In this document: positions 12,301 to 49,413 of the stretch, one piece after another
Position numbering within the stretch: the first letter of the stretch is position 1
Layout of the letters: every line of letters begins with the position of its first letter
Assembly: GCA_043228905.1 (NCBI GenBank)
Contig: JBHGNT010000001.1
Span: forward strand, 19,282,001-19,346,000
Length of the DNA stretch: 64,000 nt
Source of the DNA: Azolla caroliniana
Lineage: Eukaryota > Plantae > Polypodiophyta
Reading direction: 5' to 3'
Position numbers and translations under genes: made by a program
The notes under the pieces: generated by a model
What the model was told of the DNA's origin: nothing
The model's input: the letters and a program-made list of their open reading frames with translations, nothing else
Databases searched by the model: none

Positions 12301-12362
12301 AGTAGGGGGAAAAGGATAGGAGGATGAGGGAGAACGACAAGTAGGCTGGAGGAAAGAGGAAT

Positions 12363-12374: not shown

Positions 12375-12376
12375 AC

Positions 12377-17003: not shown

Positions 17004-17075
17004 TCCACCCCCACCAAACCGCACGTCCTTCGGTACGTGCCAAGAAGAGAGAAAGTGAGATTTCGGCTACGATGA

Positions 17076-20560: not shown

Positions 20561-22757
20561 CTAAAAATCCGAGGATTCGCCTCCGAGACTATCTCGATTC
20601 CTCATGATTGGCTCGCACCGTTAGGAATTGGACCGATCTTTGGTTGTCAAGACTCTTTATTCGTGTGAAGGCTGCTCCATTATCGAATACTTTGGTCTCC
20701 ATCCGAGATGATGTGATATAAGGTTGCCCTAGGATGACAGGATGCGACGTCGATTCTTGTACGAAGAAGTGTTGATCCATCTCCACATCCCTGATCATGA
20801 CTTTGACATTGGGACAAGCTCCGTACAAATCCTCCGTAGACTTTGTTGCCGCGCGAATCTTCCATCCGTGGTTTGTATTGATTGGCCATCTTCCTTTTTT
20901 GTAGAAGTCGGTTGACATGAGGTTGATCTCCGAGCTGTGGTCGATCAAGGCTACCACGGTCTCTTTCTTCTCCCCGATCTTCACCGGCGTCTCCGTTGTC
21001 GCTCGTGCCCAATGAGGTCGAGTGTAGTGGCTGTCCACCATATCTTCATCGATTTCGTCTCTTGCCATCGTTATGGCATTCGTTTTTGCTTTTTGCGGCT
21101 TCTCTTCTTCCTCATCCGATTGTTGTCTCTTTCTCTTTACAAGGTCCACGATCATGTCATGGAACTCCTTCTTCGTAATGCCAAGCAATTCCCTCAAGGA
21201 CAAAGTTACGTGGCTATCAAGAACTCGTTCTTCGAGAATCTTCTTTAGGTCCGTCGTCTGCTCTATGTCCGACCTTAGCTTATAGGTAGGTATAGTCCTT
21301 GTCCTCCGAGCGGGGTCTTCAACACCAACCTTCACGGGCCGAACCGTTTCTTCAACTCGTATGCTCGGCTCCCCTTTCCGGCTTGATTCTCGTTCCTCCG
21401 TTTGTAAAGGTCGACTCGTCTCCGCATCGTCCTTCTTTTTCGTGTTCCTTGTTTCATGTCTTTTTGATGGCCCTTGCTCTTCTATTCTCTTTCTCTTTTC
21501 TTCGATGAACACCTCGTGGTTCTCACACATCACCTCTGCGAGTATGGTGTTGTCATCCACCGGATCTGACCACCCAGTTATGCTTTTCATGCTTCGGTCC
21601 GCAAGCTCTACCTCGTTCGACGTGACTTTTCCCTTCTTCTCATATTCGAGAACGGAAGTCCAAAACTTTGCTCCCGCTCTAGCAGCTTCAGTCTTGTCTT
21701 TTCCGACTCTTATTCCGGCCGACGCAGCATAGTGCATCGCATCCACATGAGTCGCATCGGCATCCTCCATAGATTTCTTCATTCCTCTTCTTCCGAAATT
21801 CACCCGTAGGGGTCTTCTAGTCTCGCTTGAGCAAATCATGTTGTCCTCTATGTATACGATATTTTGTTGAATCGCCTCTCGAAGGCTTGCACAATCCCTT
21901 CTCATGTGGTCCATGCTGTTGCACCACACGCATCTAAAGGGTTCTTTTCCTTTAGGGCCCCGACGATTCATGTTGGCTAGCGTGATCTTCTCGAACTTCT
22001 TCGCTAGCTCTTCAATGATGTCGTCATCAATCTTCTTTTCTTCCACGTTACTTTGTCTTGGCGGCTCAGCTACTTTCGGTGGTCTTGCTTTCTCCGTGGT
22101 AGTCGGTCCCGTCAAGTCGGTGTCATCAACCCATTGGCGACGCTTGTCGAGCCTATTGCATGCCCGCTTCACCGCTATCCAGTCCGCTACGAGCCCATTT
22201 GCTTGGGTATCATCTTCGAGAAGAGTCCCCAACTCCCGTCTATCCTTTATGTCCACGACCTTCAAGAAGTACAAAGTCTTGTCCTCTTCAAGCAACACTT
22301 GGTCCATATTGGGGAGACGACTAAACATCTGGTCGAATTCGTCGTACACCCTCGAGACGCTCATCTTCTTATTCTTCTTCTCTATCCACTTCATCAGGGC
22401 ATGTCGAGTCATCCTCGTTGAGTCTTCAGTCACGAACTCCGCTAGTATCATTTTCTCGAACTCGGACCATGTTGTCTTACCTTCTTGAAGCTCGATGACG
22501 CGTCTTTGGATGTTGTTGGTGACAACTCTCTTGAAGCTTGCGATTTGACGTGCCTCGGACAAGTCCCTCTGATTCATCTCCCTTCTATATGCATCAAGGA
22601 ACTTCGTAACGTTCCTTCCATCGAATTAGCCCTCGAGCTCTACGACATGATCGACAGCCTTCTCCACGCTCATGTCGTTGTCCCGAGATCTCATCATTTG
22701 CTCGACGATTAGCATCATCCTTTCGAGCTCTCCCGCTTGGTTGCTTGAGGACGCCAT
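20561..22757 (-). pseudogene. Element C gag-protease
   Basis: FDGRNVTKFL, CVWCNSMDHMRRDC knuckle, ALIDHSSEIN protease site, ILGQPY; one internal stop near 22628. Confidence 0.85.
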
Positions 22758-22800
22758 CTCCAAGTATTAATCTCGACTTGATCCTTCCTACCGCCTCTTT

Positions 22801-22816
22801 CACGTCGGGTTCACCA
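22801..22816 (-). promoter_or_regulatory. PBS of element C, TGGTGAACCCGACGTG (tRNA-Trp)
   Basis: Lies 8 nt inside the 5' LTR boundary and matches the recalled plant tRNA-Trp 3' end CACGTCGGGTTCA-CCA. Confidence 0.8.
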
Positions 22817-22824
22817 CTTGCTTA

Positions 22825-23847
22825 TGTCGTGAAGATCCGTCACTACGCGCGGATCGTGAGGCGGAACCGCCGGGGTTCTGGACCGGAAGGATTCAAAGTC
22901 GATACAAGCTTTGGCGAGAAAGTACTTAAGATAGATTGGGAAAGAGAGAAGTTGAGATTAAAAGATTGAGAAAGATTGATTGAAGTTTTATCTTTGGATT
23001 TAAGAAACAAGTTACACCATCAATTTGATAACGAATTTCTTCTTCTTAATTTCATAATAAAAAAAAACTGTGTTTTTTCTCCTCCCCCTTCCTTCTTTTA
23101 TAGATGCTCTCATGCATATGATGCATGTGAGGGTACAAGACATGCATAAATTGCATGTTTGCCATTTGGCGCTTATGTATTACATGTGGTGCATGATGAC
23201 CATGTCACTCATTTTAGCTCTCATGTATAAGAATTTACATGTAAAAGTACAATGATAGAAATATACTTTCAACTAAATAGCATAGCTTAATGGTAAGCTA
23301 ATTGATTCCTAACTTGGAGGTGCAAGGTTCGAATCCTTACTTGCCCTCCTTGTATATGTATATATGTATATATATTTATTTATCTAGTTGCCGGATGTCG
23401 CCGGATGCCGTCGGTTACCGGTGCCGGATTGCCGCCGGATCACCGGCTCCATCGTGGGTCTGGTTTTGGTTGGCCAAAACCCTTTACGAGTAGCTAGCCC
23501 ACCTCCACTCTTAGTTCAAGTTACCTTGAACTCTCTATGCTCCACACATATACACAAAGATAATATCTTTTGCTCCACCTTATATATGATGAGAGTCGTA
23601 TTTGTCGTGCCTATGTGGGATATCTCACAATTTTCTCTTTTCCTTTCACAAACTTTATACCCTCATATCTTGACATTTAGTTGTCCGTTTCTCGTCTAAT
23701 AAAGTGCATTCGAAACCTCCATCATTTTGTACTTAGATATTAAATTTATTTAAAATGTTATCTTCACAATTATTGTATTATGTGATTTATACTCGACTTT
23801 GTACGTTTTATGGGATTTTCACACTATTGCCAAAAATCTTCACGACA
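22825..23847 (-). repeat. 5' LTR of element C
   Basis: Direct repeat of 15964-17003. Confidence 0.95.
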
Positions 23848-23851
23848 CCGG

Positions 23852-25977
23852 CGCAGGTAACGGCAAAGGCATTGAGCCGGTTCTTAGGCTAGATCCGATG
23901 GCACAACTAGATGCTCTGATACTTGGCCGACCTGGCTACACCGTTGCATGCCGCGGTACATCGAACAACATTCCAATGGATGGACATCGAGGATAGGGCA
24001 TATATGGCCCTCAAGGTACTATTGTCGCAAGCACCGGTAGTGCAGCCTCCGGATTGGAGTAAAGAATTTCATGTGTTCGTGGACGCCTCCGACATCGCAA
24101 TCGGAAGCGCACTGATGCAGCTTACGGAGCCAAAGTGGTACCGGCCAGTGTACTATGCCAGCCGAAAGCTATCCCAAGCGGAATGGAACTACTCTACCAC
24201 GGAACGGGAAGCCCTAGGGATGATCTGTAGTGTGACAAAGTTTCGGCATTATTTATTGGGAAGGAAGTTTTCCTTCCATGTAGATCATTCGGCACTCCTC
24301 TACCTAGTGTCCAAGGCGTCACTCACTAGTAAGTTGGCCCGGTGGACCTTACTGTTACAAGAATTCGAGTTCGAAATATTTCACCGACCCGGTATACAGC
24401 ATGCCATAGCGGATTATTTAAGCTGATTAGAGTTCGGAGAGACGGGCGACAGAGTAGTGGACGAGTTTCTAGATGCGGAGCTATTTCGAGTCACTACGGA
24501 AACGGCAGCAGATGAGACGGTGGCACAGGAAGACAAGTGGCTCACAAATATGCACCAGTTTCTGAGCACAGGACTGCCTCCGGAGGAGATGAACCGGGAC
24601 GAAAGGAAACACCTAACGGTGCAAAGCCGACATTTCTGCTTATTGCGAGACACACTTTACCACAAGGGTGCGGACGGCATATGGAGACGGGTTGTGCGCA
24701 GCGATGAAAAGGACCTCATACTGAGGGAAGCCCAATGCGAAGTTGCCGGAGGTCACTATGCCGGAGATGCGACAGCCAGGAAAATATGGCAAAGTGGCCT
24801 ATGGTGGCCAACTACATTAAGAGATGTTGTACGGTACGCAAAAGAATGTGACCTATGCCAGCAAATGGGCCAGCCAACGGAGCAAGCTCGGATGCCACAC
24901 CAGCCTATACTACCACTCGAACCATTCCAGAAGTGGGGGCTGGACTTTGTTGGACCGTTCAAACCACCGGCAATGAGAACAGGTAATCGGTACGTCATCG
25001 TCGCGACGGATTACTGCACGAAATGGGTGGAGGTCAAAGCCTTAAGAGACAACACCGCTGCGTCAACGACAAAATTTCTATACGAATACATCTGGTGCCG
25101 TTACGGATGCCCAATCGAATTAATAAGTGACCAAGGGGGGCACTTTCTCGACCAAGTAGTTGAAAGCCTGACGACATTCTATGCCGTTGTCCATAAACGG
25201 AGCACACCGTACTATCTGCAAGCAAACGGGTTAGCTGAGTTGACGAACAAAACGCTCCAGAATATCCTCCGGAAGATCGTCAATGAAAACCGAATGGATT
25301 GGGATACCAAGCTACATAGCGCGCTTTGGGCATACCGAACAACATACAAAACGAGCATCCGAACAACACCATTCCGGTTAGCGTTCGGACTACAGGCGGT
25401 CATGCCGGTGGAATTCCAAGTACTAAGCTTATGGATCCAGCTACAAGAACGGCTGAACGAGAAGGAGTTGGAGGCAATACGGTTAACAGAGCTGTGTGAA
25501 CTCGAGGAACAACGGCTGGCAAGCATCCTGCACTTAGAATTGGAACATCGGCGACAGAAAGCATTTGTCGACCGGCACAGGAAAGGAAATGAAAAAAAAT
25601 TCGAAATCGGCAAGCCGGTGTTAGTATTTCAGACCCGGATGGGCAAGATGCCGGGTAAACTACGGTTTAGATGGACCGGCCCGTATTGGCTGACACGGGA
25701 GTATAATGGGTCCTACCGGTTAGGGACACTTGCCGGCGAAGTGCTAGGCAAATGGGTCAACGGATTCAGATTGAAGCCATATAGAGGACTAATGCCCAAG
25801 AACCCATTTGAGCAAAGGACCGACACCGGATCGGGAACCGGTGCGGAAACGGCAACCTGTGAGGGAAACGGCAACCACCAAGACGGAGGAGACGGCAAGC
25901 TAGTAACAGGGGAGAATGAGGTGACGACAAACCGTAATGAGGCCGGTAAGGGTCCGATAGGACCAATGGACAAGTAA
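23852..25977 (+). pseudogene. Element A RNase H and integrase
   Basis: FVDASDIAIG, NYSTTEREALG, WGLDFVGP, LISDQGGHF, WTGPY; no chromodomain. Confidence 0.93.
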
Positions 25978-27104
25978 CCTCACCCTACATTAAAAATGAA
26001 TAAATAAATAAATAAATAAAAAGCGAAGTAATCATGCAAAAGCGAGGTATGAATGGACAAGAGAGCGAGGAGCGAAAAGGTACGTAGTGGGCATTTAAGC
26101 GCCGCCACAGGACATAATACTATTTTAGTACACGACGTGCACACGCTCGAAAAGGCGCTAGAATGCACAGAGAAAAACCACTGCGCATGGAGACCCTCTA
26201 CTTTCACGAACCCAGGAGCACAGAAGCACCAAGGCGTTGGAAGATCATCAGATGAGAACCTACACATAGAGAACCCCCGCTTTCTGAACTCTCTCTCTCT
26301 CTCTCTCTCACTCTCATCACCATCCAACATCGCCACCACAATCCGACCTCGACACAGACATGGACCCGCAAACGCTGTCGGGATTCTTGACGATTATGGA
26401 GGCGCCGCCACACAAAGAAGCCAACAAGGTGATCAAAGCAATTGACACAGAGGTCATAACGGAGGAGGCGATTCGTGCGTTAACAGGCCTTCCGGAGGGA
26501 GGCATATTCACGATCGACAATCTGGCCTCGGAGCAACTCATCAAGTATTTTGGTGAGTACTCCCTTGCCAGCAAGGGCTACCGGACACAGGGCGGCGGAG
26601 ATATGCTGTTCCGCGAGATTTCCTGTTAAGAGTCTATTACTAATCAATAGACCAAATCAAGTAAAAAGGAAGAAAATAGATTGGATAGAAGAACCCGTTC
26701 CACCCGACCACCTCCGAGCTATGATCTAGACATAGCCAACCTACCACCGACGTCCCATACCGCCGGATATTAGGATGACTAATACCTTGGAAGAGATAAA
26801 CACGATCGTCGAGACGAAAGCCTAGCCCGCACCACCGGTGTCTACGACAGCAGCCTTCCGACGTGATGATCTCTATGAGGGTAGCTAAGCCTCATATTTA
26901 TACCTTTTCCTAGGCCCCTTGAATAGATGTGCCTTTCTAAAAGGCTCTCTATTCATTGGTTGTCTAAATCATGATAGTGCATGCACATATCATTCATTCT
27001 ATCCAATCATTAGTCCCCTTTTTAATAATAGTGAACATACCCTTCACTAATGTAAATATTAGTGACCTACCCTCACCAACGTTATGTGTACATAACATAC
27101 TCCC

Positions 27105-30100
27105 CTACTTCAAAAGATTGCACTCTTGCAATATAAAGTGAGGAAATTGTGCCTTAAGCGAATGCTCGCGTTCCCATGTGGCATCATCAATAGGTTTATC
27201 CATCCATTTGATCTTGAATAGCCGAATCTCTTTAGAACGTAAACGTTTAGTACGAGAATCAAGAATTCGTTCAGGAACATGAGGTTTGTAAGAAAAATCC
27301 TCTAATGTTACAAGATCTTGGATTGTGATGGTGTTATCACCAGAGCCTAAAAATGGTTTTAGACGACTGACGTGAAAAACAGGATGAATACCCACGTTAC
27401 GAGGTAAGGCAAGGTGATAAGCAGATGACCCAACTCGCTTAAGGATTTCAAATGGGCCACAATATCGTGGGGCTAACTTAGCGCACTTGCCCGTAGATAA
27501 TGACGTAGAATCAGTCGGGACACGCAAAAAAACTTTTTGACCAATAGTAAATGCACGAGGACGTCTATCCTGATCAGCATAAAATCGAGCACGATCTTGA
27601 GCTGTCTTGACATTTTCTTTGGCAATATGCAACATTTGGTTCATGTCTTGCAAAAAATTGCGTGTACTGTCTAATGTATCACGATGAATCGTGACATCAA
27701 CTGGGGCACGTGGCTGAAAACCATACATCAACATAAAAGGACTATATCCAGTGGATGTATGTTTAGAGCTATTATAGGCAAATTCTAAGATAGGAAGGTA
27801 TTGCTCCCACTTAGAAGGGGTTTTTGCTACATAAGCTCGAAGCATGTCCTCAATAATTTGATTAACTCGTTCAGTTTGTCCATCAGACTGAGGATGATCT
27901 GCGGAACTCATGCTCAACGTAGTTTCTAGTTTCTTAAAGACCTGAGTCCAAAAGTCACTAGTAAACTTGGAATCTCGATCACTAACAATATCCATCGGTA
28001 ATTCATAAAAACGAAATAACTCATCAACAAATTGATAAGCCAACTGTTGAGCGGTTACCGTGGTTTTTGTAGGAATAAATCTAGCTAATTTTGTTAGCCT
28101 GTCAACGACAACCCATATGGCATCATGACCCCTTTGTGTACGAGGTAAACTAACAATAAAATCCATTGAGATACTTTCCCATTTATTGTTGGGAATATCT
28201 AAGGGATGTAAAAGACCAGCAGCTTTAAGTCGTTCCGACTTATTAATCTGACATTGTAAGCATTGAGTTACGTATTTATGCACGTCAGAGCGCATCTTAG
28301 GCCAGAAAAAAGTACACGAGATGAGAACGAGTGTGCGTTGTATTCCAGGATGACCAGCAGATGGTGCATCATGACATTCATGAAAATTTTTTTGTTTAAC
28401 ATTTGGTAAATCTGGAACACAGACCTTTCCACTACGGTAGAGCAAACCGTTTGTAATGTGAAAGGTCGCCTTCGAGGGTAGGGTGCTAGTATCGGCATCT
28501 AAACCAGATTCGGCTTTCGTCCAGTATTTTGAGAAATAACTGTCATCAAGGTATTTCCCTCGAAGGTGATCTAAAAGATCAGATTTTATTTCCGTGAAGC
28601 TAAGCATGTTAACTTCTTTAATGCGACTAAGAGCATCAGCAACGGTGTTCATAGAACCCTTGCGATATCGTATGGAAAAATCAAAATCTTGCATAAGGTC
28701 AGCCCAACGGCCTTTACGACCAACAAGATCGGGCTGGTCACAAAAATACTTTAATGATTGATGGTCTGTTGTAACCACAAATTTATTTCCATAGAGATAG
28801 TGCCTCCATGTTTTAAGTGCGTGTATCACCGCAAACAACTCTTTCTCTTGAACCGAATACCGAGATTGAGCAGCATCAAGCTTCTTACTTTCAAAAGCAA
28901 TAGGGTGACCACCTTGATAAAGAACGGCACCAATAGCATAATCACTAGCATCGGTTTCAATTGAGAAAGGCTTAGAAGGGTCTGGTAATAGAAGAGTGGG
29001 AGCCTGACACACATGCTCCTTGAGTGTCTCAAATGATTTGTCAAGTTGTTCATTCCATGAAATTGGTTTGACAGACTTACGTGGATGACCTTTTAAAAGA
29101 TCAGTTAATGGCGTAGTCAATTTGGAATAGTTACGAATTGTTTTTCGTAAAAATCCAACAAACCCTAAGAATGATCTAAGTTCACGAATATTACGAGGAA
29201 TGGGCCAAAGTTTAACCTTTTCAATACGAGAAGGTTCAATTTCAACGCCATTTTCTGTAATTAAATGACCTAGGTACACAATAGATTTTTGGAAGAAGTC
29301 ACATTTTGAATGTTTTGCATAGAAAGAGTTGTCACGCAACTTTCGCAAAACAAATCGAACATGTTGAACATGATCTTGCAAGGTACGGCTATATATCAAA
29401 ATATCATCCAAGAAGACGACAACAAAATCACCGAGTTGATCTCGGAAAACATCATTCATCGCTTGTTGGAATGTGGCTGGAGCATTAGTCAACCCAAACG
29501 GCATGACTAAAAACTCATAATGGCCATAGCGCGTACGAAAAGCGGTTTTAGGAATATCATCCTCGGCGATGCGAATCTGATGATAACCAGTTCGTAAGTC
29601 AATTTTCGTAAAATATCGAGCCCCGTGCAAACGATCAATCAAATCATCGGCACGAGGTAATGGATATGCATTCTTAATTGTCATTTTATTCAAACGGCGA
29701 TAATTGATACACATTCGCCACGAACCTTCCTTCTTCTTGACTAATAGAACTGGCGCACCCCAAGGTGATTTACTATACCTAATGTGGCCCATACTCAAGT
29801 ATTCCTTAAGTTGTTTAGCGATCTCATCCTCTTCTAATCGACTAAGTCGGTAAGGTGGAATGCTCACAGGAGCAGCCCCAGGGATGAGTTCAATTTGATG
29901 GTCCACATTACGTTTAGGTGGTAAAGTAAGCGGTAATTCAGTAGGAAACACATCTTGAAAATCCTCTAAAATAGAGTCGAGTAATCGTTGCTCAAAATGT
30001 GGTAATTGTGTGGCGTCAATATTAAAATAATAAAATTGAACCGCCGGATCAATTACACACGAATAAATTAATGAACTAGAATACTCACTTAAAGATTTAG

Positions 30101-31361
30101 AAGACACAAGTGAATGAGAAGGAAGTTTGGAACATTGAATAAAATGTTTACAATTATTAAGTTCAAATGTGATTGAGTGATTAACCCAATCAATGGACAA
30201 AGAAGGGTTTTTATTAAAAAACCAAGGATATCCTAAAATGACATCTGCGGATTGTAATTTCATAACATGAAAGTCAAGCTTCTCCAAATAAGTATCTATT
30301 TGAATTGGCAGTTGACAAACAATGCCACTGATGTATTGAACGTTTCCATTTGCCATGTGAACTTGATAGATATGATCACTTGCGTTTATGTGGAGCTCCA
30401 TTTGTTGCACAAAGTGATCATTAAGAAAATTGTGAGAACTACCGGAATCAAACAAGAAATGTGCTTGTGTTCCATTGATATATTCGACTGCTCGGAGTAA
30501 ATCATTAGGTCCAAGTAAATGTGAAGGAAAAGTGCATTCACATAAACTTAAGTGATTGGTATGAACTTCAACAATATCAAAAGACTCACCTGTGTGACTC
30601 GTAGATTTGTCTTGAGGAGGGGTGTTCATTGACTTCCTCTCAAGACGACGACAGGTATCCTTTGTGTGGTACCGCTTCTTGCAATATGCACAGAAGAGGT
30701 TCGGTTTCTTTGAGTCGCGGTCAAGAGTGTCACTGGATTGCTTACGTTTCCCAATGAACTTGACATTCGGAGTTTTGGCGAACTCAGGTTTATTGTGGTC
30801 TTTCTTGGAAGTCCTATGGTATCGCAGCACAATGTTGACGGCTTCCTCGAAAGTTGTGGGGTCCTTGTCATGGACAATCCAATGATAATCCCCATTGGGA
30901 ATACCATTCAAAAAACAAGCGACAAACCATTTCTCACCCGTAAGTCCCGATTTTTGGATCTGGATCCGAGCGTGATGCACATAATCCTCGAGAGAGGTAA
31001 ATGGCTTACTAGACAATGTGAGCAAGTGTTGCGCTTGTTCGGTTTGAGAAGGTGGCTGCAAGAATTGTTTCTTAAAAACATCAACGAAACCTTCCCAAGT
31101 TGTGGGTAAGTTTTTTGCGGTCCTTAGGCCACGCCACCAAGCAGCAGCTCGGCCACCTAACTCACGACCGACATAACCAATTTTTACTGCATCGGGCTTG
31201 GGATGAAGCTCAAAGTGAGACTCCCAACGACCAAGCCAAGTGCTAATAGCCTCCTCGGTTCTTTCTTTCTTATCTCCCTTGAAAGGCGTGACTACGAAGG
31301 AAGGTTCACCTTCTTTCTTGGACTCAATAGTTAATTCTTGGAATTTCTTTTCCAATGCCAT
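27105..31361 (-). CDS. Element F gag-pol polyprotein (gag, CCHC, PR, RT, RNase H, IN, chromodomain), 1418 aa
   Basis: Uninterrupted ORF: [63 protein letters not shown], and ERILDSR...IKW...ATWE chromodomain. Confidence 0.95.
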
Positions 31362-32492
31362 ATTGGCCTATCTCATTTCGGCCAATTGATTCAAGGTAGT
31401 AGTGAGCAATTGCTCAATAGTGATCTCAGCTTGTGTGCGAGATGCGGATTGGGGTTGAGAGGTCTCATTTGGAGAGATCGTTCCAACTGCGTTCAAAACT
31501 TGTTCCATGATGCACGCTGTGGGTATGCAATAAAATAAGGAGGTTCAGAAAATACACAAGCAAAATGAATGCTTGAAATTTTGATTGAAAGAACTTTATC
31601 CAAGAAAGTATCTCATGTCTTTACCCCTCTAGACATATGAGATGTGATTCGAGATCCGATAACTATGGTAACACTATGGTGTTTTAAAAACCATGGGGGA
31701 AAACATAGCTAAGATGTATTTCTCGGATCTCTATCTTGAGTAATCATGGCGGCTCCCTGAGGCTCAACCATGGTTCTTACATCAATGAAATTTCCTAGAT
31801 AGCCTTATATTAATGCCAAGCCATCATGTATTATATGGTCGAGAAAGTGTATTACGTGAAAAAACAAGTGCACTCACAAGTAATATTCTAGTCTTGCGAG
31901 CAATAAGCAAACGTGATGATAAAATGATAAAATAAGGCACTACTCATAAGAGTTAAGTAGTGACGAAAACAAGGGTAAAAAAAAGAACCCATGTGTTACC
32001 TACGAAAAAAACAATGTCACAAATAAATGGGAAGTGCAAGGTATGCACATATACATCCCAATATGATTGTTATAACTTGCACAATTGTGACATAAGCCAC
32101 AAATTGATACAAGTGATGACGGTGTTGTGCGCAAAGATGTAATACTCAAATCCATGAGTAAAACATCAATAAGGGAACTCATAAGGTTTTACTCGTTTTC
32201 TAAGGCTTGATGATAAGAGTTAAACCTAGATGACCCGTTGAAAAAAAAATCGTTCAACAAGCCACTCCATAGGAAAAAAATAGTCTACACGTAAAGGTTA
32301 CATTAAAAATAAACGATGTAAATACTTTATACATGAAAAGGAAGTGGAAAAAGGAGAGTTAATTGTGGGCGGGTAAATAATAATTACTAGAAAATCATAT
32401 AAGTGAAACAATACTTATGAAATTAAAATTTAATTAGAATAATCAACAATTAGGTGTATGGAATCAAACATGCCCTAAGATACGAAACCCTA

Positions 32493-32826
32493 GGGTAGTT
32501 GACATGCACCTCCTCAAGACCACCACATATCCCTAGAATCGGCCAAGTAATGGCTAATTAAAGAGGAAAGTGGCATAGGTAAGTGACATATACCTCGTCA
32601 AGGCCACATCATCCCTTAGAATCGGCCAATTGATGGCTAATTAAAAAGGAAAGTGGCATATGTAAGCTACATATACCTTGTCAAGGCCACAACATCCCAT
32701 AGAATCGGCCAATTGATGGCTTAATAGAGAGTAGAGTGGCATAGGTAGGCAACATACACCTCGTCAAGGCCACATCATCCCTTAGAATCGGCCAAGTGAT
32801 GGCTCAATAGAGGGGAAGAGTGGTAT
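32493..32826. repeat. 83-bp tandem repeat x4 in the leader of element F
   Basis: AGAATCGGCC recurs at 32535, 32618, 32701 and 32784. Confidence 0.9.
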
Positions 32827-35800
32827 ACTCAACATCATATGCAAAACGGCCATGAGATAAGCGTGTGCGATTAGAGCAAACACGCTCGACCCAATGCACA
32901 AGAATAATTATTATCGTAAGAGTTCAAGAGAGGAGAGAGTGGGATATATATCGCAATATGCAAAAGGCCATGAGTTGAGCGTGTGCGATTAGTGCAAACA
33001 CGCTCGGCCCGATGCATAATAATAAGTAAAATCGTAGCGTAGTAGGAGGTAGAAAGAAAGAGAATAAAACGTAATACCAATTTGATTCGACCATAAAGAA
33101 CGCATAATAGAAAAAGAGAAGAGATAAAAAAAGAAGAATACCGGGTTTAGAGTGTTGTTTTGATCCTGAGAAGAGCATGACGAGCCTTGTTAGATCCCCC
33201 TCGCTCACACGCAAAAAACATCAAAACAACAAAAAAATTGTTAGTAAAAGCTCTGATACCACTGTTAAGAGTCTATTACTAATCAATAGACCAAATCAAG
33301 TAAAAAGGAAGAAAATAGATTGGATAGAAGAACCCGTTCCACCCGACCACCTCCGAGCTATGATCTAGACATAGCCAACCTACCACCGACGTCCCATACC
33401 GCCGGATATTAGGATGACTAATACCTTGGAAGAGATAAACACGATCGTCGAGACGAAAGCCTAGCCCGCACCACCGGTGTCTACGACAGCAGCCTTCCGA
33501 CGTGATGATCTCTATGAGGGTAGCTAAGCCTCATATTTATACCTTTTCCTAGGCCCCTTGAATAGATGTGCCTTTCTAAAAGGCTCTCTATTCATTGGTT
33601 GTCTAAATCATGATAGTGCATGCACATATCATTCATTCTATCCAATCATTAGTCCCCTTTTTAATAATAGTGAACATACCCTTCACTAATGTAAATATTA
33701 GTGACCTACCCTCACCAACGTTATGTGTACATAACATTTCCTGTGTGCTCCACGAATACGGCCATGTGTACCCTAGACCCCCTGTCATGCCGCAGAACCG
33801 GGCAAGGATGATCATTGCCACCTATGAAGGGATCAAGGTGGATTGGCCGGTATTGATCGCAGACGGTTTGTGTGCGGCGATCGAGATTGTCAGAGGAAAA
33901 GACGGCAAAGAAGGCCGACATGGATGGAAGATATGGCACGAAGTAATGCAGTGGCTCACCTTGCTTGTGCCACTCGTCCAGCCCGTCCAAGAAGTGGGGA
34001 AGAGTGGCGGACAACACCCAAAGGACTGCTTCCAAAAGACAACAGCTATTGGCCTTTAAGGCCACTAAGGGGAAGGCGGCGGACGCAGAACAGAAAAGGA
34101 GAGCGCCAGCCGGAAGCGGCCAACAGATGCGCAGGAGGAACCATCGGTACGGCCCGTAAAGAGTACACTCCGCTGACCGGTGAATAGAGAAGCGGATCCC
34201 GTGGCGGCGAAAATCAATGCCGAGACTCAGGAAGAGGAAATAGAGGAGGAGCCCACGGAGCACCTCCAGCGACGGTCATCGGCAAGGACCGTTGAGGCAG
34301 CCGGGAAACGTTCGGATCCTCAGACGGAGGGAACACCGGCTCCCCATACTGAGACTCCCATGCCAAGGAAGGAACTGGAATCGGTGCGCATGGAACCGGA
34401 ATCAGAAGCCCCTGCACCACTGGCAGCACCGGCAAGTCCCGTACCGCCAGAGCCGGAAAGGTCAATGCAGCCTCCCTCGGCCAACCAAGAAGAAGCGCAC
34501 GGGGAACCAGGACAACAGGGTGGTCCACGGGCAGAAACGGAATTGCAACTCGGCGCAATCAAGCGGCACCACCCACCCACAAGCGAGCCCATCCGTCAAA
34601 CCTCCATGCAAGCGCAACAAAAATGCACCGGTAGCCTATGGCTCCGGTGGATAGGCGAACAGATTGCCTGAGCAGTAGGGTATATTGAGGCGGAAGAAAG
34701 AGCGCAAAGTGAACAGTTGCTCGTCACAACCGAACAACTAGAGACGGCCCGATCCAGAATCCGGTGCCTTGAAAAAGACTTGGATCAGGTCACGACAGAA
34801 ATGGCCAAAATGGCCTTAACGGCAACACAGATCCAAGCACCGGTGACTCCGGTAAGTGTACACAATAAAGAAACAGGCCAACCTATACATATTAATAAGA
34901 CCTTGGCAACAGAAACCGTTCCAGAGAGAGATGCGGCGCAAGCCCAGGAGCTTGCGGAATTGAGAGATGAACTTGCCGCACAAGAAGCACTAAGGAGCCG
35001 TGAACGGGAATTGAAGACAGCGGTCGAAGCCAAATTAAAGAAGACTGATGAGAACCTCCGCCGGGCAGAGGAGAGCCTCCGGAAAGGCCATCAAGAGTAC
35101 GACCGGCTAAGGGAGGAAAAAGACAAAGTGCTACAGGAAAAGGACAAGCTGCGGAAGACGGCGGAAATGGAAATTGAACGGCTAAAGGAGGAGCTCCGAC
35201 AGTAGAAGGACCGCGAGGACCGGGCTCGTCGACAGATCAACGTACAGCTCAAGCAAAAGACAAATGATTTGGAGCACCTGCATCGGGACTACAAACGGCT
35301 GGAAACGGAGCATAAGGAACGGATGGCTGAGCTCCGACAGGAAGTTGATCAGGCCGCGATGGCGCTCGCCGACGAACGAGCGGAAAATACAAGACGGTTG
35401 GACGAGGCGGAGAAGGTCCGGATGGAGCTCCAGAGGCAGCAATAGGAAGAAAGGGAGAGAGCGTCAACGGTATTGCAAAAATTACAAAGCACATATCCAG
35501 GGCAATTGATGCATTACAAGGAGCAGGTAGAAGACAACATCATAATCATCAAGCAATTTAAGGAGGAACGACAAGCGGTGGAGATCAAATCACAGATGGG
35601 AACGGGCCGGATTCAGTGCATCCTCCGGGCATGGCTGAATTAGACAAAACGCTTGATTGATGAAAGCTCCGTAAGATGGTGGACAAAGTGGGCACAAAAT
35701 ACGGCGGAACTCCAATGACGTGGAAAACCGGCGGAAGGAAGGAGATGATTGTTACACGTTGACTTCCGAGGACTTCACCGCCATACGGGACGAGCTGGCC

Positions 35801-36208
35801 GAAGACTTCCAAGTCCTGGCAGATGAACAACTGGTGTAGGTCTAGCAACTTGTAGCTCAGCTAGACGATGATAGGCTGGACGCTCAAATCCAGTTTGAGA
35901 GCTACGAGCGGTCCCGGGTTCGGGAAGAAAAAGCACGAGAAGCGACAACGGTTAACCTTAGTGATGAGGAACCGTCGCCGAACGAGGGCCAGGCCGGAAC
36001 CGGTCAACCGGAGACCACTACGACGGAGGCAGCAACGACGGAAACACCGATGTCAGAGCAACAAACGGAGGCGCAGCAGCAGCAACCACAACAACAACAA
36101 CAACAACCAATTCCAGATGAACCATTGGAGACTCTCGAACAAAGCATTCTGGATATTTTGGACGAAGAATAGCAAGGGTCGGATGGTGGATTCGACGTAC
36201 AAGGTACT

Positions 36209-36225
36209 GTCCCACGGGCGTGCCA
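36209..36225 (+). promoter_or_regulatory. tRNA-Arg(UCU) 3'-end-like sequence (a PBS when read on the minus strand) at the PPT position of element A
   Basis: GTCCCACGGGCGTGCCA ends 2 nt before the LTR start TGTTA; no purine tract is present. Confidence 0.7.
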
Positions 36226-36227
36226 TG

Positions 36228-36645
36228 TGTTACCGGCCTGCAAAGGAGTCCAGAGTGTGAAACGAAGGAGTTATTTAATTATTAAGGGATGGTTGTAAGT
36301 AAGCTATTAGTGTGGACGGACGGACCGGAATCGGTATGCCGTTCCGGATCCGGACCGATCCCGAACAGGTGCGGATGGCACCGGAAACCTATTTAAAGGC
36401 CCGGATACAATGTAATGGGCAACGGATAATTAATGAAGCTTAGTGTTTCTATCTCTCTGTGTTAATTGCCGTTCTGCATTCATTGTTATATCTTACGCGT
36501 GTGATTATTAAGGACGATCTTGCTAAGTAACCTAATTAAGTCGGATTAATCGTTGAGCCTAATCCTCTTGCCGTAACATCCCTTTGGTGAAGTGTCTTCC
36601 GTAGACACCCTGTGTTAGGCCATTGTCCGGCCCTAAGAGTTAACA
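36228..36645 (+). repeat. 3' LTR of element A (418 bp)
   Basis: TGTTA...TAACA termini; CTATTTAAAG TATA-like box at about 36389 on +; end identical to 923-941. Confidence 0.85.
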
Positions 36646-37763
36646 GTAAGAAAATGATCACTTTGTCTGGTGTGAGGATAGCTTGATCTCTCGCGGACAA
36701 CCTCCCGAATCGACTTTCGAATGCCGAAAACACATTGAAGACCTTCAGCCCCTTGTCCGGCATTTCCACCCAATCTTCGAATCCCCTCTGCATTGCCTTG
36801 GAAGAGTCCTCGATAGTGAACGTGACCTTCAACGCTTCTTCAAATGCTTCCCACATCGGATTTTGTTGTCCTATACCGTGGATACTCCCTTGAAGCCCGT
36901 CCGTAGCCACCCGATTGAAGGATGTAACTTGCAATCTTCCGATATGCCGCATTGTAGCATTTCCGCCTTGTAGTCCCGCAAATAACGTGACACATCCTTC
37001 CCATTGAATTGCCCGTTCCGTTGCATGAGCCACTCTACTGCCACCGCAATCTCCGACATTGCGCGTTGTTCTTGTAGCATCCGCTCGAACATTGTCATCA
37101 TATTGTTAGCCTCTTGTTGTTTTTCCATCTCCTTACCACCCGTTTTCACATTGGGTTCACCAAATGTGTCGTGCCTTTCGGCGCCGAATCATTGCATGAG
37201 TTGGTGGGAACCGCTGGGGTTTTGGAATAGGATGAGAAAGAATTTGAGATGTTATCAATATGAATAGATTATAGGAAAGAAAGATATGAAACTCTTGAAT
37301 CCCATGAATATAATATATTAATCAACCCTTATATAAAAAAATCAACACCCCCCCCCCCCCCCCCCCCCCACAATGTATATCTTTCTCTCTTCCTTATATA
37401 GTGATGGAAGAGTCTAAGTTTACCACATCCAAGCATCATGCCTTTTCTAACTTTAGTTTTCATGCACACTACATGTGCAGGATTAGCTTTCTATCACATC
37501 TTTTCATTTAACTCGAGTGTGTATGCATGAATAACTTTTTCTATCATGCTTATCTAGAATATTTACATGGGATAAAGTAATATTAAAACTCATAATATGC
37601 TAGTACAATGGTAAGTCTTAAAATTGCTAACATGGAGGTATAGGGTTCAAATCCGCCCTATGCATGTAACATAATTATTGTAGTATTTTCTCTTATTTCT
37701 TTATACTTCGTCAATTGGGTACTCCACACACATTTTATGTATTGTACAAAGTACACTACGACA
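36646..37763 (-). mobile_element. Element D remnant (relative of C): 5' LTR 37167-37763, tRNA-Trp PBS 37147-37162, gag start; truncated where A begins
   Basis: TGTCGT...ACGACA LTR ends. Gag GQFNGKDVSRYL resembles C gag. tRNA-like module at 37601-37654. Confidence 0.8.
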
Positions 37764-38989: not shown

Positions 38990-40650
38990 AAGCCACCTAA
39001 AAACAGTTCGAAAAGAATGGTCATAACTCCTTAGTTTGAATTGAGTTGATGTTGTTCTGCTCTAACTTTGTCTCTCTCTCGTGTAAAGTTTCCATTAAAC
39101 TTGTGTCTATATTCTGTTGCCATCCGGCTAAGCCGATTTTTCCTTAGGTTTCGCATATTTACTTTTTCATGGTATCAGAGTGTGAGGGTTAAGAACCTCT
39201 CCAGCCAACAAGTGCTTTTCAAAGACAAACCCTAATATCCGGTAGAGAACAGAAATCAAGAAGGTTAAAATGGACCTAGGAATGGCTAGCTCGCTTCTGG
39301 CGGAGAAGCTCGATAGATCCAACTATGCATCTTGGTCGTACAAGATGTACTAGTACCTGCTCGAGCACGGTTATTGGAGTTATGTCGACGGAGCTAATGA
39401 CACAGCATCTGATGCAGCACGGAGGGTCTTCCCGGCTTGGGAACAAGCGGCAAGCAGGGAAATGTACTGCTTCACATCCAGTGTTGGTGATCAGCTGCTT
39501 AGCCATATACAGGATGCAAAGATGTCAAAGGAAGCATGGGTAAACCTGAAGAAGGTCTTCGCCACGAGCACCAGGCCCGGAAGCTACAACTCCACAAGAG
39601 TTAAGCAATGTCCGACAAAAGGATATGTCGGTGGACGACTACACGACCCGAATAAAAGACATATGCATATTAACATGACCATTGAAGAAGATGAGATGGT
39701 GCACGTCTGTGTCAGGGGCCTGGTGTCAAAGTTCGGTGCATTCCGGAAAACAATCTGTACAAGGGAGAATACTCCCTCGTTTTTCGACTTACAGTCAATG
39801 CTCCTTGTAGAGGAGAACCACGTGGGTGCGTGGACGAGCACACACACCAATCACGAGATGCTAAACATGGAGACGGATCGGCCCCGTAGTCGTGGCGGAC
39901 GAGGTGGATCGACACGTGGTGGAAGCAGATGACAAGAGCTAAACCGAAGGCACAAGGATGGTGCCAACAATAGTTCTGGACCCTCCGGAAGCAGGGGGAG
40001 TCAAAGCGGCGCTAGAAACTGACAAGGGAAGACCGCAACGGAATGTTGGTACTATGGCCGTAAGGACCACAAGGAGAGCAAGTGTTGGAAAAAGTGTGTT
40101 GATTTGGACAAGTCTGGATCCGGGAAAGCCTGACGAGAAAGTCAGCAAAGCTCGCACTATGCGGAAGGACCGGAAGGATCCGGTTCCGAAGATGGATCGG
40201 GCCCAACCTTCGTGATGAAACACAAGCCTAATTCAGTGAAGACAAGCACCTCGAAACTGAATGAGGTATGGTATGTTGATTCTAGAGTGGTTTGCTTATC
40301 TAGAAAAACCGGAACAATCAGGGGTGGTCGAAACTGGAGACAACACCTCGCATACCATCGAGCACATCGGTGAGGTTCCTCTCAGCCATGTCGGGCAGAA
40401 GCGAAAGCTAATGAACGTCCTACACGTTCCGACAATCACGAAGAATCTCATGCCAGTCGGACAAATTGTCGATCAAGGGATGCAGGTTCGGTTCACGGAC
40501 CTCCGATGCTTCATCGAAGAATAGGCAAAGTCATTGTGCAAGGGTGCCGAGATAGGAGAATGTTTATCCTCGAAACAAATGATGTCGGCACCGTTATGTT
40601 CGCGAAAGGGCAAACGGTCGAGTCGAACATCGACCTGTGGCATAAGCGGA
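38990..40650 (+). mobile_element. Decayed Ty1/Copia 5' remnant (LTR end, iMet PBS at about 39170, gag, knuckle, PR, GAG-pre-integrase)
   Basis: TGGTATCAGAG PBS; KLDRSNYASWSYKM, VLHVPTITKNL, DLWHKR; multiple frameshifts. Confidence 0.8.
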
Positions 40651-40690
40651 TCCCTAAACTTAATACGGTCGTTACATATGGTACGGATAT

Positions 40691-43600
40691 TGATGATGAG
40701 AGAAAGAAAAAAGATAGAGAAGAAAAGAGGAAGAGAAAAGAATACTTCAATATACTATTAGGAAAACAATACAATCCTCTTGGACTCCAAAAGTAACACC
40801 CCAAATAACTACTTCAATATACTATTAGCTAAAATCGTCTTTCCTTCTTCTCTCTTTCTTCAACTAATCTTCTTCTCACTTCTTCTAGTCTTCTTATTAT
40901 TGCTCACTTCTTGTAGATATTGTATTCCCCCTTTTGTCTCTCCCAATTGCTAAGATCAATATACTATTAGCTAAAATAGTCTTTCCTTCTTCTCTCTTTC
41001 TTCAACTAATCTTCTTCTCACTTCTTCTAATCTTCTTATTATTGCTTACTTCTTGTAGATATTGTATTCCCCCTTTTGTCTCTCCCAATTGCTAAGAATA
41101 CCCTCATATTTATAGGTTTTTAGTTGCGTTATTATTGCATTTTTCTTTCCTTTTCTTTCTACATATCCTCGAGTTTGTGTGATGCATTTTTCATATCATT
41201 ATTTCTAGTTTTTCATCCACATTTTTCATACAAGAAAGCTATCTTTGTCAACTTTCTTTGAAATATTTTCTTTTGAAATTTGGATATGAGATGAAGAAGT
41301 TCTGAACATTTTTCTTTGCCTTTTTTATGCTGTTTTTTTCTTTTTTCCTGCTTTTCCTAATTTTGGAAATTGCCTCTAACTTCATATCCCTTCAGTTTCC
41401 TTCGTCTTTTAACTCTTGAACCTTTCATATTGTGCTTTATTCATATACACCTTAGCATCCGCTGTATTTGCCATGCTCTTTTCTTACGAGCAAAAGTTGA
41501 CTTCACATTTAGCCCCCCTCCTTGCTTGTTGAGCAAACCATTTATGGTGAGCCTAAAAAAAAGAAAATGAAAAAACTCCTTCGCCTTCTGGTAGGCTATA
41601 GACAAAGGAGTATAAATACTAAAATTGTAACAAATTATTGTATGAGAAAAAAACCCCATTAAGCGGTGGAAAAAAGAACTCACAGTCCTAGACACACCCA
41701 CACCCACACATTGACAATCTCCATCACCATCTTCCTCCTTGTCAACACGGAGAAAGAGGTTACCACAATTATTATGTTTTCGTCAACTCTCCAAAAACAA
41801 GTAGGGCCATGCGATACATAACTCTTGATTGAAGTAAGCATGTCAACATATGAATAAACCTTTCAAGTGAACGAACTTTTTGTACAAATACCTTCAAAGT
41901 TTTGAGACTTGTTGGAGTTGTCACCTTTTGAATTACTTTGATCTTTGCTTCATCAACATGACTTCCTTCTTGGTACACCACATTCTCCACATTACCTTGT
42001 CTTGTGCGTACAACTATTTCATCTAGAATTACATCTCAAAAAGGAAGTGAAAAATGATCTCGTGTGGTGGAATCATTCAAGAGTTTGAAGTCGATGTCAT
42101 TGTTCTTTGGAACCACAAGAATAGGTGACAAAAAATTCAAATCCTCCACATGATAAGTGAAACTCACTTGAAACAATGTTTTGAACTCCTTTATAAGTTT
42201 TTCCTTTTTCACAACCCCCAATCGTCGAAGCTTTTGGGCAATTGGTACACTTTCCTTCAACTTGATGTGGTCCTTGATGCCTTCTCTTATCTGTGAATAG
42301 TCATTTATGAATAACTTTGGAAACTTAGAAAAAAGAGAAATAAAACTTAGATCCTCTTTTCCTTGGACTTTGTTCAAAATCATCATCTTTTTTCCCTTTA
42401 AGGTTATAATACCTTCTTCAATTACTTCGCCTTCATCCTTAGACACCGTGTGGAACCATTTCTTTTCCCTATCCCATGAAGTTCTATCACTTGGTATGCT
42501 TTCCTCTTCTTGCTTGCCATTGTCGATAGATGTTTCCTTCTCCTTCATACATTTGATTACTTGTTGTAGATACAAGTCATAGAAGATGTTAAACCCCTTC
42601 GACGTTGATGATATCATCATACTCCAATCATGTATTACGTGTAATTCTTGCATCCAAGGTCTTACTAATATTAAGGAACAAGATGGCCCTTTAAGAAGTA
42701 TCACATGCAAATCCATTGAAATGGATATGCCAAAACACTCAATAACAACATCCTCTATAACTCCAAAATGAGAGGCCAAACATCCGTCAACTATGTCTAC
42801 CTTGGTAGAGGACTTTTGATAGATAGGATTTCCAATCTTACTCACTAGGACATTAGATGTAGGAGCAATTCTAATACCACTATCTACTAAAGCATTCTTA
42901 GTTAAAAGACCTTTAATGGTTACCAAAATAGTGGGTCGAATATCCTTTTGAACTTTCAGTTGCACAATCTTCGTACAATGTAATGTCTTTATACTTTGTT
43001 GTATACTCGATACACGTCCCCACTCCTTTTCTGGTGATGGAGAAAGTTGAAGAAGTTGTGGCCAAGTTAAACGAGGTCCACTAGAGATTAGCTCTTGGTT
43101 GAGATCGAATGGTTCCACACCTTCCCCCATAAGCATATCATCAATTTTAATCTTTCTTCGTGGATGTTTCTTTCTAAGTTCATCCTCCAAGTTAGTCTCC
43201 TTAGGATTCTTCTTTTGTTGAGAGTTAATAGACTCTCCTTCCAACTCTTTATTTTTATGTGATGCAGTAGATGTCTTAATGTGTGCAACATCACAATCTT
43301 GAGCTATATCATACACAAAGTCAATAAGATTTACCTTAGGAGGAATTGTTGGAATTTGCACTAAAGTATTTTCCCCTCCTACCACATGGTTGTTGAGTTG
43401 GTGAAAGTTGTTACTAGTGTTGTTTTGATTACTCTGAAATTGATTCATGCCTTGACCCCCAATCACCTTGTCTTCGTGAAGGACATCGTGTAGATATATG
43501 TCCCTCAACACCACATGTGTAGCACACGATCACTCTCCTTCGCTTTGGAGCATCTCGAGTTTGACTAAAATTTTCTTGCATGCTTTGGATTTGTCGAGTA

Positions 43601-45050
43601 ATTTCATCAAGACATTGATTAACTTGCTCCGAAAGACTTCCTTCCACCTTAGTTTGAGTTGTTTCTTGCATCACCAGAATATTAGGTTGATATGTCGTAA
43701 AAACATTAGGGAATCCATGCATAATTGATGATTGTTGAAGAATAGGAGATTTAAATGTTACAATTGTTGAATCCACTCTCGCTTGTAGAACTTGGATTTG
43801 TCTATTGTAAGCTTGACAAGTTTGGACAAGCGCTTGGAAAGTTGTAGGATCCTTTAGATTTGCTTCCAACACAAAGTGTGGACTTAATCTTGCTTTGAAA
43901 TGGTCCATCTAAAACCATTCATCCTCCATTCCACCATGTAGTCCAATCCACGTAGTCCAAGGGTCAATAAATTCCCTCTCATAATCGATATACTCAATTT
44001 GATGACATTCGTAAACGAAAGAGTTCCTCTCACACTTCCATTGCATTTCGACATTGAATATACGGAGCTTTAAATTGTTTTACCAATAGTTGTAATTCAA
44101 TTGTTGGTCTAGTAGCAAGGACTGATATCAATCCCTTGCTTGTCCATAAAAAGTAGCCACCAATAGAGGAAGCTTCTCAAAATCCTTCATCTTCCCTATT
44201 GATATTGCATGATGTTCGAAGGCGGCCAAGAATGCTCCCGCATCTTGAACCCCATCACCTGCAAAAGCAAATTGAAAAGCCATATTTTCTACAAAGAAAA
44301 CATGCCTTGTCTCTGATATGGAAAGAATCGATCCTCCTTGGAGCGCTAAAATGATGATGAGAGAAAGAAAAAAGATAGAGAAGAGAAGAGGAGATGAGAG
44401 AATACTTCAATATACTATTAGCCAAAATAGTCTTTCCTTCTTCTCTCTATCTTCAACTAATCTTCTTCTCACTTCTTCTTGTAGATATTGTATTCCCCCT
44501 TTTGTCTCTCCCAATTGCTAGGAATACCCTCATATTTATAGGTTTTTAGTTGCTTTTTTCTTGCTTTTTTCTTTTCTTTTCTTTCTACATATGCTCGAGT
44601 TTGTGAGGTGCGTTTTTCATATCATTATTTATAGTTTTTCATACAAGAAAGCTCTCTTTGTCAACTTTCTTACAAATCTTTTCTTTTGAAATTTGGATAT
44701 GAGATGAAGAAGTTATGAGCTTTTTTCTTTGCCTTTTTTATGCGTTTTTTTCTTTTTTCTTTCTTCCTGCTTTTTCTACTTTTGGAAAATGCCTCTAAAT
44801 TTTATCCCTTCAGTTTCCTTCGTCTTTTAACTCTTGATATGAGCTTTTTTCTCTACCTTTTTTATGCGTTTTTTTTCTTTTTTCTTTCTTCCTGCTTTTT
44901 CTACTTTTGGAAAATGCCTCTAAATTTTATCCCTTCAGTTTCCTTCGTCTTTTAACTCTTGAACCTTTCATATTGTGGGTTATTCTTATACACCTTAGCA
45001 TCCGATGTATTTGCCATGCTCTTTTCTTACGAGCAAAAATTGACTTCACA
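40691..45050 (-). mobile_element. Element H: old, internally deleted Gypsy-type LTR element (gag, PR, partial RT; no integrase)
   Basis: Related LTRs at 40691-41507 and 44352-45050; TSD GATAT/GATAC; PPT at 41508-41525; CYTCGVEGHISTRC knuckle, ALVDSG, SPILVVPK and RDHFSLPF motifs. Confidence 0.82.
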
Positions 45051-48183: not shown

Positions 48184-49413
48184 ATCGGCCACACAACCGA
48201 AATCTGAACAACCAGACCCCAGGACCACCACACCAATGCAATCACAAACACAACAAAAATCGACACTTGTCGTAATTGAACAGCCGACACAACGGCTGCG
48301 AAGGATGAAACAAAGGTCCCAACGATTTCCTCAGACTCAGCAAGAGGAGCCTGCGCAAAAGAAACAAGGAACCGACGACCAAGCCACACAGAGCACACAA
48401 ATACCCCGGGTCAATCCTAATGACACAACCAAAGTTCAAAAAGGGCAGTCATCAATAACAACGGTGCGAGAAGTAGTAGGCTTTGCCGACATTCCTCTAG
48501 TGGCACATGAACTGGTAGCTATTCGACAATTCGAAACATCGTATGAGCTAGTAGAATGGTTAGCACAAAGATTACATGAGGTGTCGGAAAGAATGGCATA
48601 GGAGCACCAAGATCAGATAATGATCCAAAGGTCATTGAGTGGAGCTGTCAACCCGGAAGAGCAACACAAATTGGATCAAATCGGCCGACAGCGTAGTGCG
48701 CGAAACAAGGGCGAGGCTATCCGGATGCCACTGTTACATGACGCTCTGGTAGAAGTACATAGAGAATATGAAAAGGCCAGCCGAGCAGCCAAAGATATGG
48801 CTGATTTATACAAAAAATCATCAGTGGCGTCGGAAGTGCTAAACGCACAATGTACAAACATGAAAGCCGAAAACCAGCAGTTGACGGAACAACTCCAACA
48901 AGTAGAAGAGCAACTGTAGAAAACAAGGGAGGAATGTCCCACCAGGCGTGCCAAAATTATACTGTGTTGTTCGGTCGACAATGAATATTGTCGACATAGT
49001 ATAAGTCGAACGTTGCTCACCGAATGTTTTACCAATGAATTGTGGTTAAACAAATAGATCCTAAAGTGGCTGTAAACTTATCGATGTTAAACAAACATCG
49101 AGATCATTATTTATGTAATAATGTTCTGACAGAGCGTTTAGAACACAGAGATTTCCTAAACTAACTTTATATTACTAAATAAAAACGATATATCTTTACA
49201 CTGCCTTCGGTTCCATTTATAGGCAACCGGAAGGACTTTCTCATCAAGAAAACATATTGCCAAAAATGGCAAGAACAACAAAATCTCTGACTAACTATAA
49301 TTTCGGTTTTAATTTAATTCAGCAAAATGCTGACTCATTGATCCTCTATACTGATCCAACTCCGAACCTTCTAGATTTCCGACTCCGACACTTCCCCACT
49401 TGTTCGGGTAACA
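48184..49413. mobile_element. LTR-element remnant: coiled-coil ORF fragment (+), tRNA-Arg PBS-like site 48936-48953, probable LTR about 48965-49413
   Basis: ORFs 48236..48601 and 48620..48919 are in frame; GTCCCACCAGGCGTGCCA; TGTT...AACA ends; CTATAAAT on minus at 49215-49222. Confidence 0.55.

Follow-up and report, generated by a model that had tools for sequence, protein, structure and literature searches.

Results

Structure of element A

The window, i.e. the whole 64,000-nucleotide stretch of Azolla caroliniana DNA that was analysed, is a nest of plant LTR retrotransposons. One of them, element A, is a nested Ty3/gypsy non-chromovirus of about 10 kb on the + strand. Its features, together with those of two related elements in the window, are listed below; loci used for comparison carry the prefix L.

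923-941, + strand: remnant of the 5' LTR of A, 19 nt, an exact match to 36627-36645
949-959, + strand: conventional primer-binding site (PBS) of A, TGGCGACCACG, 7 nt after the LTR end
992-1717, 12910-15965 and 23836-25977, + strand: gag-PR-RT-RH-INT of A in three pieces, identified with Pfam and collinear with the L005 polyprotein (68-86% identity)
26117-36172, + strand: extra ORF of A, 3' of pol, identified by tblastn with the L006 extra ORF; stop codon at 36170-36172
36186-36195, + strand: copy of the 5' strand of a tRNA T-stem and of the T-loop, GTGGATTCGA, 9/10 identical to the tRNA-Arg of L123
36196-36208, + strand: 13-nt insert with a 4-bp hairpin, GTAC-AAG-GTAC; the stem sequence varies by subfamily and the pairing is kept
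36209-36225, + strand: inverted PBS of A, a sense copy of a tRNA-Arg 3' end with CCA, GTCCCACGGGCGTGCCA; 11 nt perfect, a 1-nt gap, 6 nt perfect
36226-36227, + strand: spacer between CCA and the LTR edge, TG (GG or AG in other subfamilies), 2 nt long in 14/14 junctions listed
36228-36645, + strand: 3' LTR of A, TGTTA...TAACA, 418 bp
48936-48953, + strand: tRNA-Arg 3' end in sense orientation, within a deleted sister-subfamily fragment; 17/18 nt, no gap, no upstream hairpin
63362-63920, + strand: 5' LTR of another clade member with a conventional PBS, TGGCACGC, at 63909; LTR end and leader 73-77% identical to L022, L026, L028 and L063

The gag-pol region of A is split by the nested elements C (which contains B) and D, and its extra ORF by the nested chromovirus E (26624-33736). 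The target site duplications (TSDs) of these insertions, GGAAC for C, CCGG for D and TTTCC for E, and the collinearity of A with the L005 polyprotein and the L006 extra ORF assign both TGG sites, at 949 and at the 3' junction, to one element. The remainder of the 5' LTR has been lost beside a Copia fragment. The LTR at 36228 was examined as possibly belonging to another element and proved to be that of the A family itself; a TATA-like sequence, CTATTTAAAG, lies inside it at 36389. None of 80 contigs had both whole LTRs with flanks that could show a TSD, and the left flank of A is lost.

The domain order gag-PR-RT-RH-INT between direct TG...CA LTRs is that of Ty3/gypsy elements. The chromodomain that follows the integrase in chromoviruses had no Pfam match in the integrase of A or in four intact polyproteins. 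These four polyproteins contained RT_RNaseH families only, with the integrase directly after and no archaeal-type RNase H; the pieces of A likewise showed no archaeal-type RNase H. The RNase H acidic residues of the clade look intact. The extra ORF, which is about 950-1200 aa long in intact relatives and lies on the same strand as pol, matched no Pfam family over the cut-off. It is open in several subfamilies (L006:3319-6330, L022:6958-9888, L039:7515-11099 and L027:1542-4406).

The normal + strand PBS reported at 949 in the preliminary description was confirmed. The same site follows a homologous LTR in L005, L006, L008, L013 and L070, and a TGG PBS was found 3' of the 5' LTR in 14 relatives besides A. 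We take the PBS of A to be that for tRNA-Arg(CCG).

Several other features of the nest were recorded. A is inserted in a distant relative of the gag of D (36646-37105, 28% identity). Short tandem duplications are present in its gag-pol region at 12836-12905 (35 bp) and 14965-15186 (110 bp), the former resembling an LTR end plus PBS, yet lying within coding sequence. In three contigs of run X4 the LTR end (36645) is joined to the LTR start (36243) through a few intervening bases, as would be seen at a two-LTR circle junction or in a tandem insertion. The nested Gypsy element C (1707-12802, - strand) has no TGG PBS by its 5' LTR and is a self-priming candidate; the nested Gypsy element D (15964-23847, - strand), with its 4-bp TSD and LTRs of about 1 kb, has no obvious TGG PBS by its 5' LTR. 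Within a further repeat at 39354-45050, partial direct repeats occupy 40691-41507 and 44352-45050, and an RT-like frame of the - strand spans 42036-43529.

A tRNA-like block at the position of the polypurine tract

Of the 15 nt directly upstream of the 3' LTR of A, 8 are purines, and purine runs in the 40 nt before this LTR reach at most 4, in agreement with the earlier observation that a purine run is missing here. At the same place the nested elements B, C, D and E, used as controls, have 10-12 purines in 15 nt and runs of 6-10. In the junctions of the A clade (n=14), 8-9 of the 15 nt are purines and the runs measure 3-4, and none of the 14 contains a purine run of at least 6 within 40 nt of the LTR. 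A polypurine tract (PPT) directly 5' of the 3' LTR is therefore absent from A and its clade. A hidden PPT further upstream was considered and rejected, as the last 300 nt contained no conserved purine tract.

The tRNA-end motif, TG and LTR described at 36209-36232 are present as read, except that the 17-mer is one base short of the tRNA end; the tRNA likeness also reaches 23 nt further upstream than had been noted. Read from the 3' end against the tRNA-Arg(TCT) of L123, a prokaryotic proxy, A has 11 identical nucleotides, a 1-nt gap, 6 identical nucleotides, the 13-nt insert and 9/10 nucleotides of the T-stem and T-loop. At 36190 many copies have G, as the tRNA does, and A>G was found at 29-75% of the depth in four runs. 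The probability of a 10-nt match to a tRNA end arising here by chance is about 1.5e-6 per position, or about 5e-4 when about 60 tRNA ends and 6 spacer lengths are allowed for, the 6-nt and 9/10-nt blocks being left uncounted.

Which tRNA the block copies

ARAGORN found a tRNA-Arg(TCT) in L001 whose 3' end matches the site of A. A pattern made to match such tRNA ends retrieved 128 loci, and 104 tRNA calls contained the pattern. Twelve of the 104 end in CCGGGCGTG, and all 12 are arginine tRNAs (11 TCG and 1 TCT) from prokaryotes, i.e. proxies chosen by the pattern. The motif had been assigned to the 3' end of tRNA-Arg(UCU); the match to real tRNA-Arg 3' ends (prokaryotic proxies L001 and L123) and to the 5' PBS of sister subfamilies supports arginine, whereas the anticodon is not fixed by such proxies, since they are prokaryotic and 11 Arg-TCG and 1 Arg-TCT share the end. 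An indirect pointer to the host tRNA is the conventional PBS of the sister subfamilies (L039, L040 and L046), which matches the same tRNA-Arg end over 13 nt. The 3' tail of A is presumably the end of the plant tRNA-Arg(UCU).

The CCA end is not encoded in eukaryotic tRNA genes. Since the block contains both CCA and a T-arm, it was likely captured from a mature tRNA. ARAGORN found no tRNA gene in the window, and Rfam gave 0 matches in 36000-36700 at E values up to 5. Scans for plant tRNA genes in the prokaryote and viral collections returned prokaryotic-type tRNAs only. The pattern scan of the viral contigs gave 4 loci, namely one tRNA-Arg(TCT) gene and three without a tRNA call.

The arginine motif also occurs elsewhere in the window. 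The one at 48936-48953 is in a sister-subfamily fragment (48200-48970, + strand) whose extra ORF is 57% identical to that of L042; TGTTG stands 11 nt past the site, with no clear LTR after it. The one at 63909, described earlier as a conventional PBS, is indeed located as such behind another LTR.

Conservation across the clade

The search by integrase alignment yielded 80 metagenome contigs, the best 80 of 340. LTR starts were searched for in these contigs independently of the motif, with the LTR starts of nine motif-bearing junctions as queries, and 16 were found; the other contigs stop short of any LTR start. Thirteen of the 16 are downstream of the integrase, and 12 of these 13 are preceded by the tRNA-like block. 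The exception, L051, has low coverage, a long branch and about 700 unrelated bases before the LTR, and has no PPT. In L070 the LTR lies downstream of the end of an extra ORF, and the block is present with CTA for CCA. The remaining two LTR starts, in L039 and L063, are those of 5' LTRs preceded by unrelated flank, and the contigs L008 and L010 terminate inside the block. The 5' and 3' LTRs of L039 start at the same base, exactly 2 nt past CCA, which identifies this edge as the true LTR start. In six contigs (L006, L013, L026, L028, L046 and L070) both sites are present, one on either side of a single LTR.

In an integrase tree of A, 21 of the 80 loci and 11 proteins, without labelled REXdb references, the block-bearing contigs fall into five supported subfamilies with 67-88% integrase identity to A. 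Subfamilies were taken as the counting unit, since the contigs represent collapsed assemblies and come from a narrow range of samples. The other copies and subfamilies, searched for a normal PPT, have the same site and no PPT. Among seven subfamily representatives the last 17 nt have a mean identity of 96% and the last 8 one of 100%, compared to 26% upstream of the block and 41% inside the LTR. The last 8 nt of the tail are identical in 13 of the 14 junctions. Within the last 11 nt, the subfamily-level changes are G>A (L022, L024, L026, L027, L028 and L029); they keep a G.T wobble between the tRNA G and the minus strand, but this argument is weak, since decay in these copies also produces G>A more often than any other change. 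The perfect tail match of 11 nt compares with the 11-13 nt of the clade's own 5' PBSs.

Read depth over the stretch peaks at the block in public runs of four organisms, at least 10-fold over its flanks, and loose contig ends on both sides of the block indicate that diverged subfamilies share it. No substitution of at least 1% was listed for 36200-36238 in these runs, in which short contigs and high depth can hide variants. The integrase of A had no match in the viral contigs. A weak 17-mer match in the extra ORF region of L047, which is not LTR-adjacent, was set aside as due to chance.

The inverted site had been predicted to covary with the tRNA isotype among subfamilies. This was not seen; the site does not differ among the five. 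A's subfamily has exchanged its 5' PBS for a different sequence with no change in the 3' tail, so that, to judge from this comparison, the tail appears to be held fixed by something outside the element.

The hairpin insert

The stems of the insert are GTAC/GTAC, GTGC/GCAC, GCGC/GCGC or GGAC/GTCC, depending on the subfamily, and GGG/CCC in a shifted register. Among 13 aligned junctions, 3 of 11 pairs are changed on both sides. In these junctions 85% of the cells pair (91% in the inner helix), compared to 36-52% when the partners are slid. The covariation score was reached by 0 of 500 shuffles and the count of doubly changed pairs by 88 of 500, in a test that is biased in favour of the structure because the structure was drawn from the same sequences. 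Folding energies were no better than those of shuffles in 6 of 7 RNA and 6 of 6 DNA folds, L008 being the exception. The T-stem of the tRNA itself forms the outer stem (GTGGG with CCCAC), and the last 10-11 nt of the tail are left unpaired on either strand in most fold predictions.

The T-arm block carries changes with which the tRNA could not pair (L022, L026, L027 and L030), and in L008 and L010 the first base of the 17-mer is changed together with its hairpin partner. The T-arm part and the L008 and L010 sites therefore look selected for their own fold and not for pairing with a tRNA.

Comparison with known systems

The PPT-less, tRNA-tail feature defines a clade, whose nearest named proteins are from a fern and liverworts (about 44-58% identity). 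Its build is that of Athila within OTA: a one-frame gag-PR-RT-RH-INT with neither chromodomain nor archaeal RNase H, as given in REXdb (PMC6317226), a length of about 10 kb, an extra ORF after pol, and a short T-rich spacer between LTR and PBS, of 4-7 nt here and 3-6 bp in Athila according to the ATHILAfinder preprint (10.64898/2026.03.20.713144). However, the same two sources give Athila PBSs as mainly those for tRNA-Asp/Asn (PMC6317226) and report a conserved PPT junction in 97% of Brassicaceae Athila copies (10.64898/2026.03.20.713144), whereas A's clade has Arg-type PBSs and no PPT. The clade is thus Athila-like in build, a placement by architecture and not by phylogeny, and departs from Athila in PBS type and in the missing PPT.

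The tRNA-Arg PBS is shared with the Tat subclades Ogre, Retand and TatIII, in which, according to PMC6317226, archaeal RNase H occurs in 92-98% of elements; this archaeal-type domain, which marks Tat within OTA (Ogre, Retand, TatI-III), was not found in the four intact polyproteins here. Phygy and Selgy, described in that source as short, without an extra ORF and with a tRNA-Trp or tRNA-Ala PBS, differ from A's clade in these respects.

A's clade has in common with canonical priming in Ty3, Ty1 and retroviruses a tRNA-primed minus strand, a short PBS and a site for the second primer directly upstream of U3. The canonical second primer is a purine tract that is encoded by the element and resistant to RNase H, whereas the site found here copies the 3' end of a tRNA, and 8 of 15 nt are purines. 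PPT priming only is described in the accessible parts of a review of Ty3 (PMC5371799) and a review of plus-strand synthesis (PMC3185511), and the portions available of 10.1101/2022.12.06.519325, PMC7472051, PMC4408406 and PMC2864245 mention no exception to it. The bipartite PBS of Ty3 also includes a tRNA-related sequence near the 3' end of the genomic RNA. In Ty3, however, this part is complementary to the tRNA, serves minus-strand priming and coexists with a PPT, whereas the block of A is identical to the tRNA end and stands in place of the PPT. A precedent for a tRNA site at the PPT position was not found in the accessible portions of the open literature, most subscription journals being outside this scope.

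Proposed priming of the plus strand

The tail lies where a PPT primer would and shares its polarity, since CCA stands 2 nt before the LTR in 14/14 junctions and this edge is the true LTR start in L039. The idea of the preliminary description that a second tRNA primes the plus strand fits this geometry and is the best reading, one that is drawn indirectly and has a competitor in a tRNA mimic encoded by the element itself. We give a probability of roughly 0.55 to the reading that plus-strand synthesis in this PPT-less clade starts from a host tRNA-Arg annealed to the minus-strand cDNA. A successful non-seed-plant clade would thus have dropped the PPT and would use host tRNAs to prime both strands, two different ones in A's subfamily, the second docking on a hairpin-capped site of the minus-strand cDNA that was captured from mature tRNA-Arg.

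From the anatomy, the conservation, the missing PPT, the fixed 2-nt spacing and the compensated hairpin, all observed directly, we infer every mechanistic step of the following course. A tRNA bound at the usual 5' PBS would prime the minus strand. RNase H would remove the genomic RNA from the 3' site, and the exposed minus-strand DNA would fold into the hairpin and present 10-11 unpaired bases, to which the acceptor end of tRNA-Arg would bind, as part of either the whole molecule or an 18-nt 3' fragment. Reverse transcriptase would extend the CCA-OH over the 2-nt spacer into U3 to give plus-strand strong-stop DNA, and removal of the tRNA by RNase H would leave the usual 2-nt overhang for integrase. 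Integrase normally trims two extra bases at the LTR ends.

A tRNA acting in trans is favoured because the exact tail is kept across subfamilies, because G>A is tolerated as a wobble and because the tail stays when the 5' PBS switches. The same conservation is difficult to explain if the block is a mimic in cis, i.e. a stretch of element RNA that is spared by RNase H and cut after CCA as a non-purine PPT, through the reverse transcriptase's existing specificity for tRNA ends: any primer sequence would pair with the cDNA made from it, yet the tRNA-Arg tail is exact across subfamilies and is kept even in the one with a different 5' primer. Moreover, the site is half pyrimidine and the RNA hairpin could not form in an RNA/DNA hybrid. 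A mimic would nevertheless account for the PPT-like position and polarity, for the compensatory hairpin changes (three pairs on both sides, 91% of inner-helix cells paired) and for L008 and L010, which preserve the fold and sacrifice tRNA identity, and PPT sequences differ widely among elements according to PMC3185511. Since decay most often takes the form of G>A, and since the T-arm part and L008/L010 look fold-selected, the mimic is a serious rival and the foremost one, although we consider it less likely than the tRNA in trans. It is improbable that the block has a structural role in the genomic RNA, either bridging the ends as in Ty3, by pairing with the 5' strands of the minus-strand primer tRNA once these are free, or acting in packaging, and that the plus strand starts in another way. 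In favour of such a role, the 5' acceptor strand and T-stem of the same tRNA are complementary to the sense copy, and one part of the bipartite Ty3 PBS lies near the 3' end (PMC5371799), but such a role needs neither the GCCA end nor the fixed 2-nt spacing, both of which are conserved; the block is unchanged in A's subfamily with its different 5' PBS, and the last 300 nt offer no other conserved purine tract.

The two ends of the element look alike, each with an LTR end, a spacer beginning with C and then TGG, as expected if the inverted site were the PBS of an antisense transcript. However, gag-pol, the extra ORF and the TATA-like box, like all coding frames, are on the + strand, which leaves the earlier suggestion that the element replicates from either strand unsupported; with no PPT at either end, such a course would, in addition, still call for a second primer other than a PPT, and we regard this explanation as very unlikely. 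Self-priming by pairing of the 3' tail with the element's own 5' PBS would be good in L039/L046 (-24.9 kcal/mol) and L022/L026 (-18.8), but is poor in A and L006 (-8.9); it is disfavoured since the 5' PBS changes between subfamilies and the tail stays, and, being largely refuted by A's subfamily, it is hardly credible. Least credible of all is a rearrangement or chimera unique to this copy. The left LTR survives as 19 bp only and the 80 contigs include no copy with both whole LTRs and a TSD, but the same junction recurs in five subfamilies and four organisms and six contigs have one LTR flanked by both sites, a conservation that refutes it.

LTR retrotransposons and retroviruses are generally taken to divide the work between a tRNA, for the minus strand, and a PPT, for the plus strand. 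Judged by the literature searched, either leading mechanism, the trans-acting tRNA or the cis-acting mimic, would be novel. For annotation, methods based on the PPT would misjudge such elements, and their near-symmetric ends carry the risk that the orientation is misread. A high-copy clade without a PPT indicates that the priming rule can be broken and provides a direct test of how reverse transcriptase chooses and removes its second primer.
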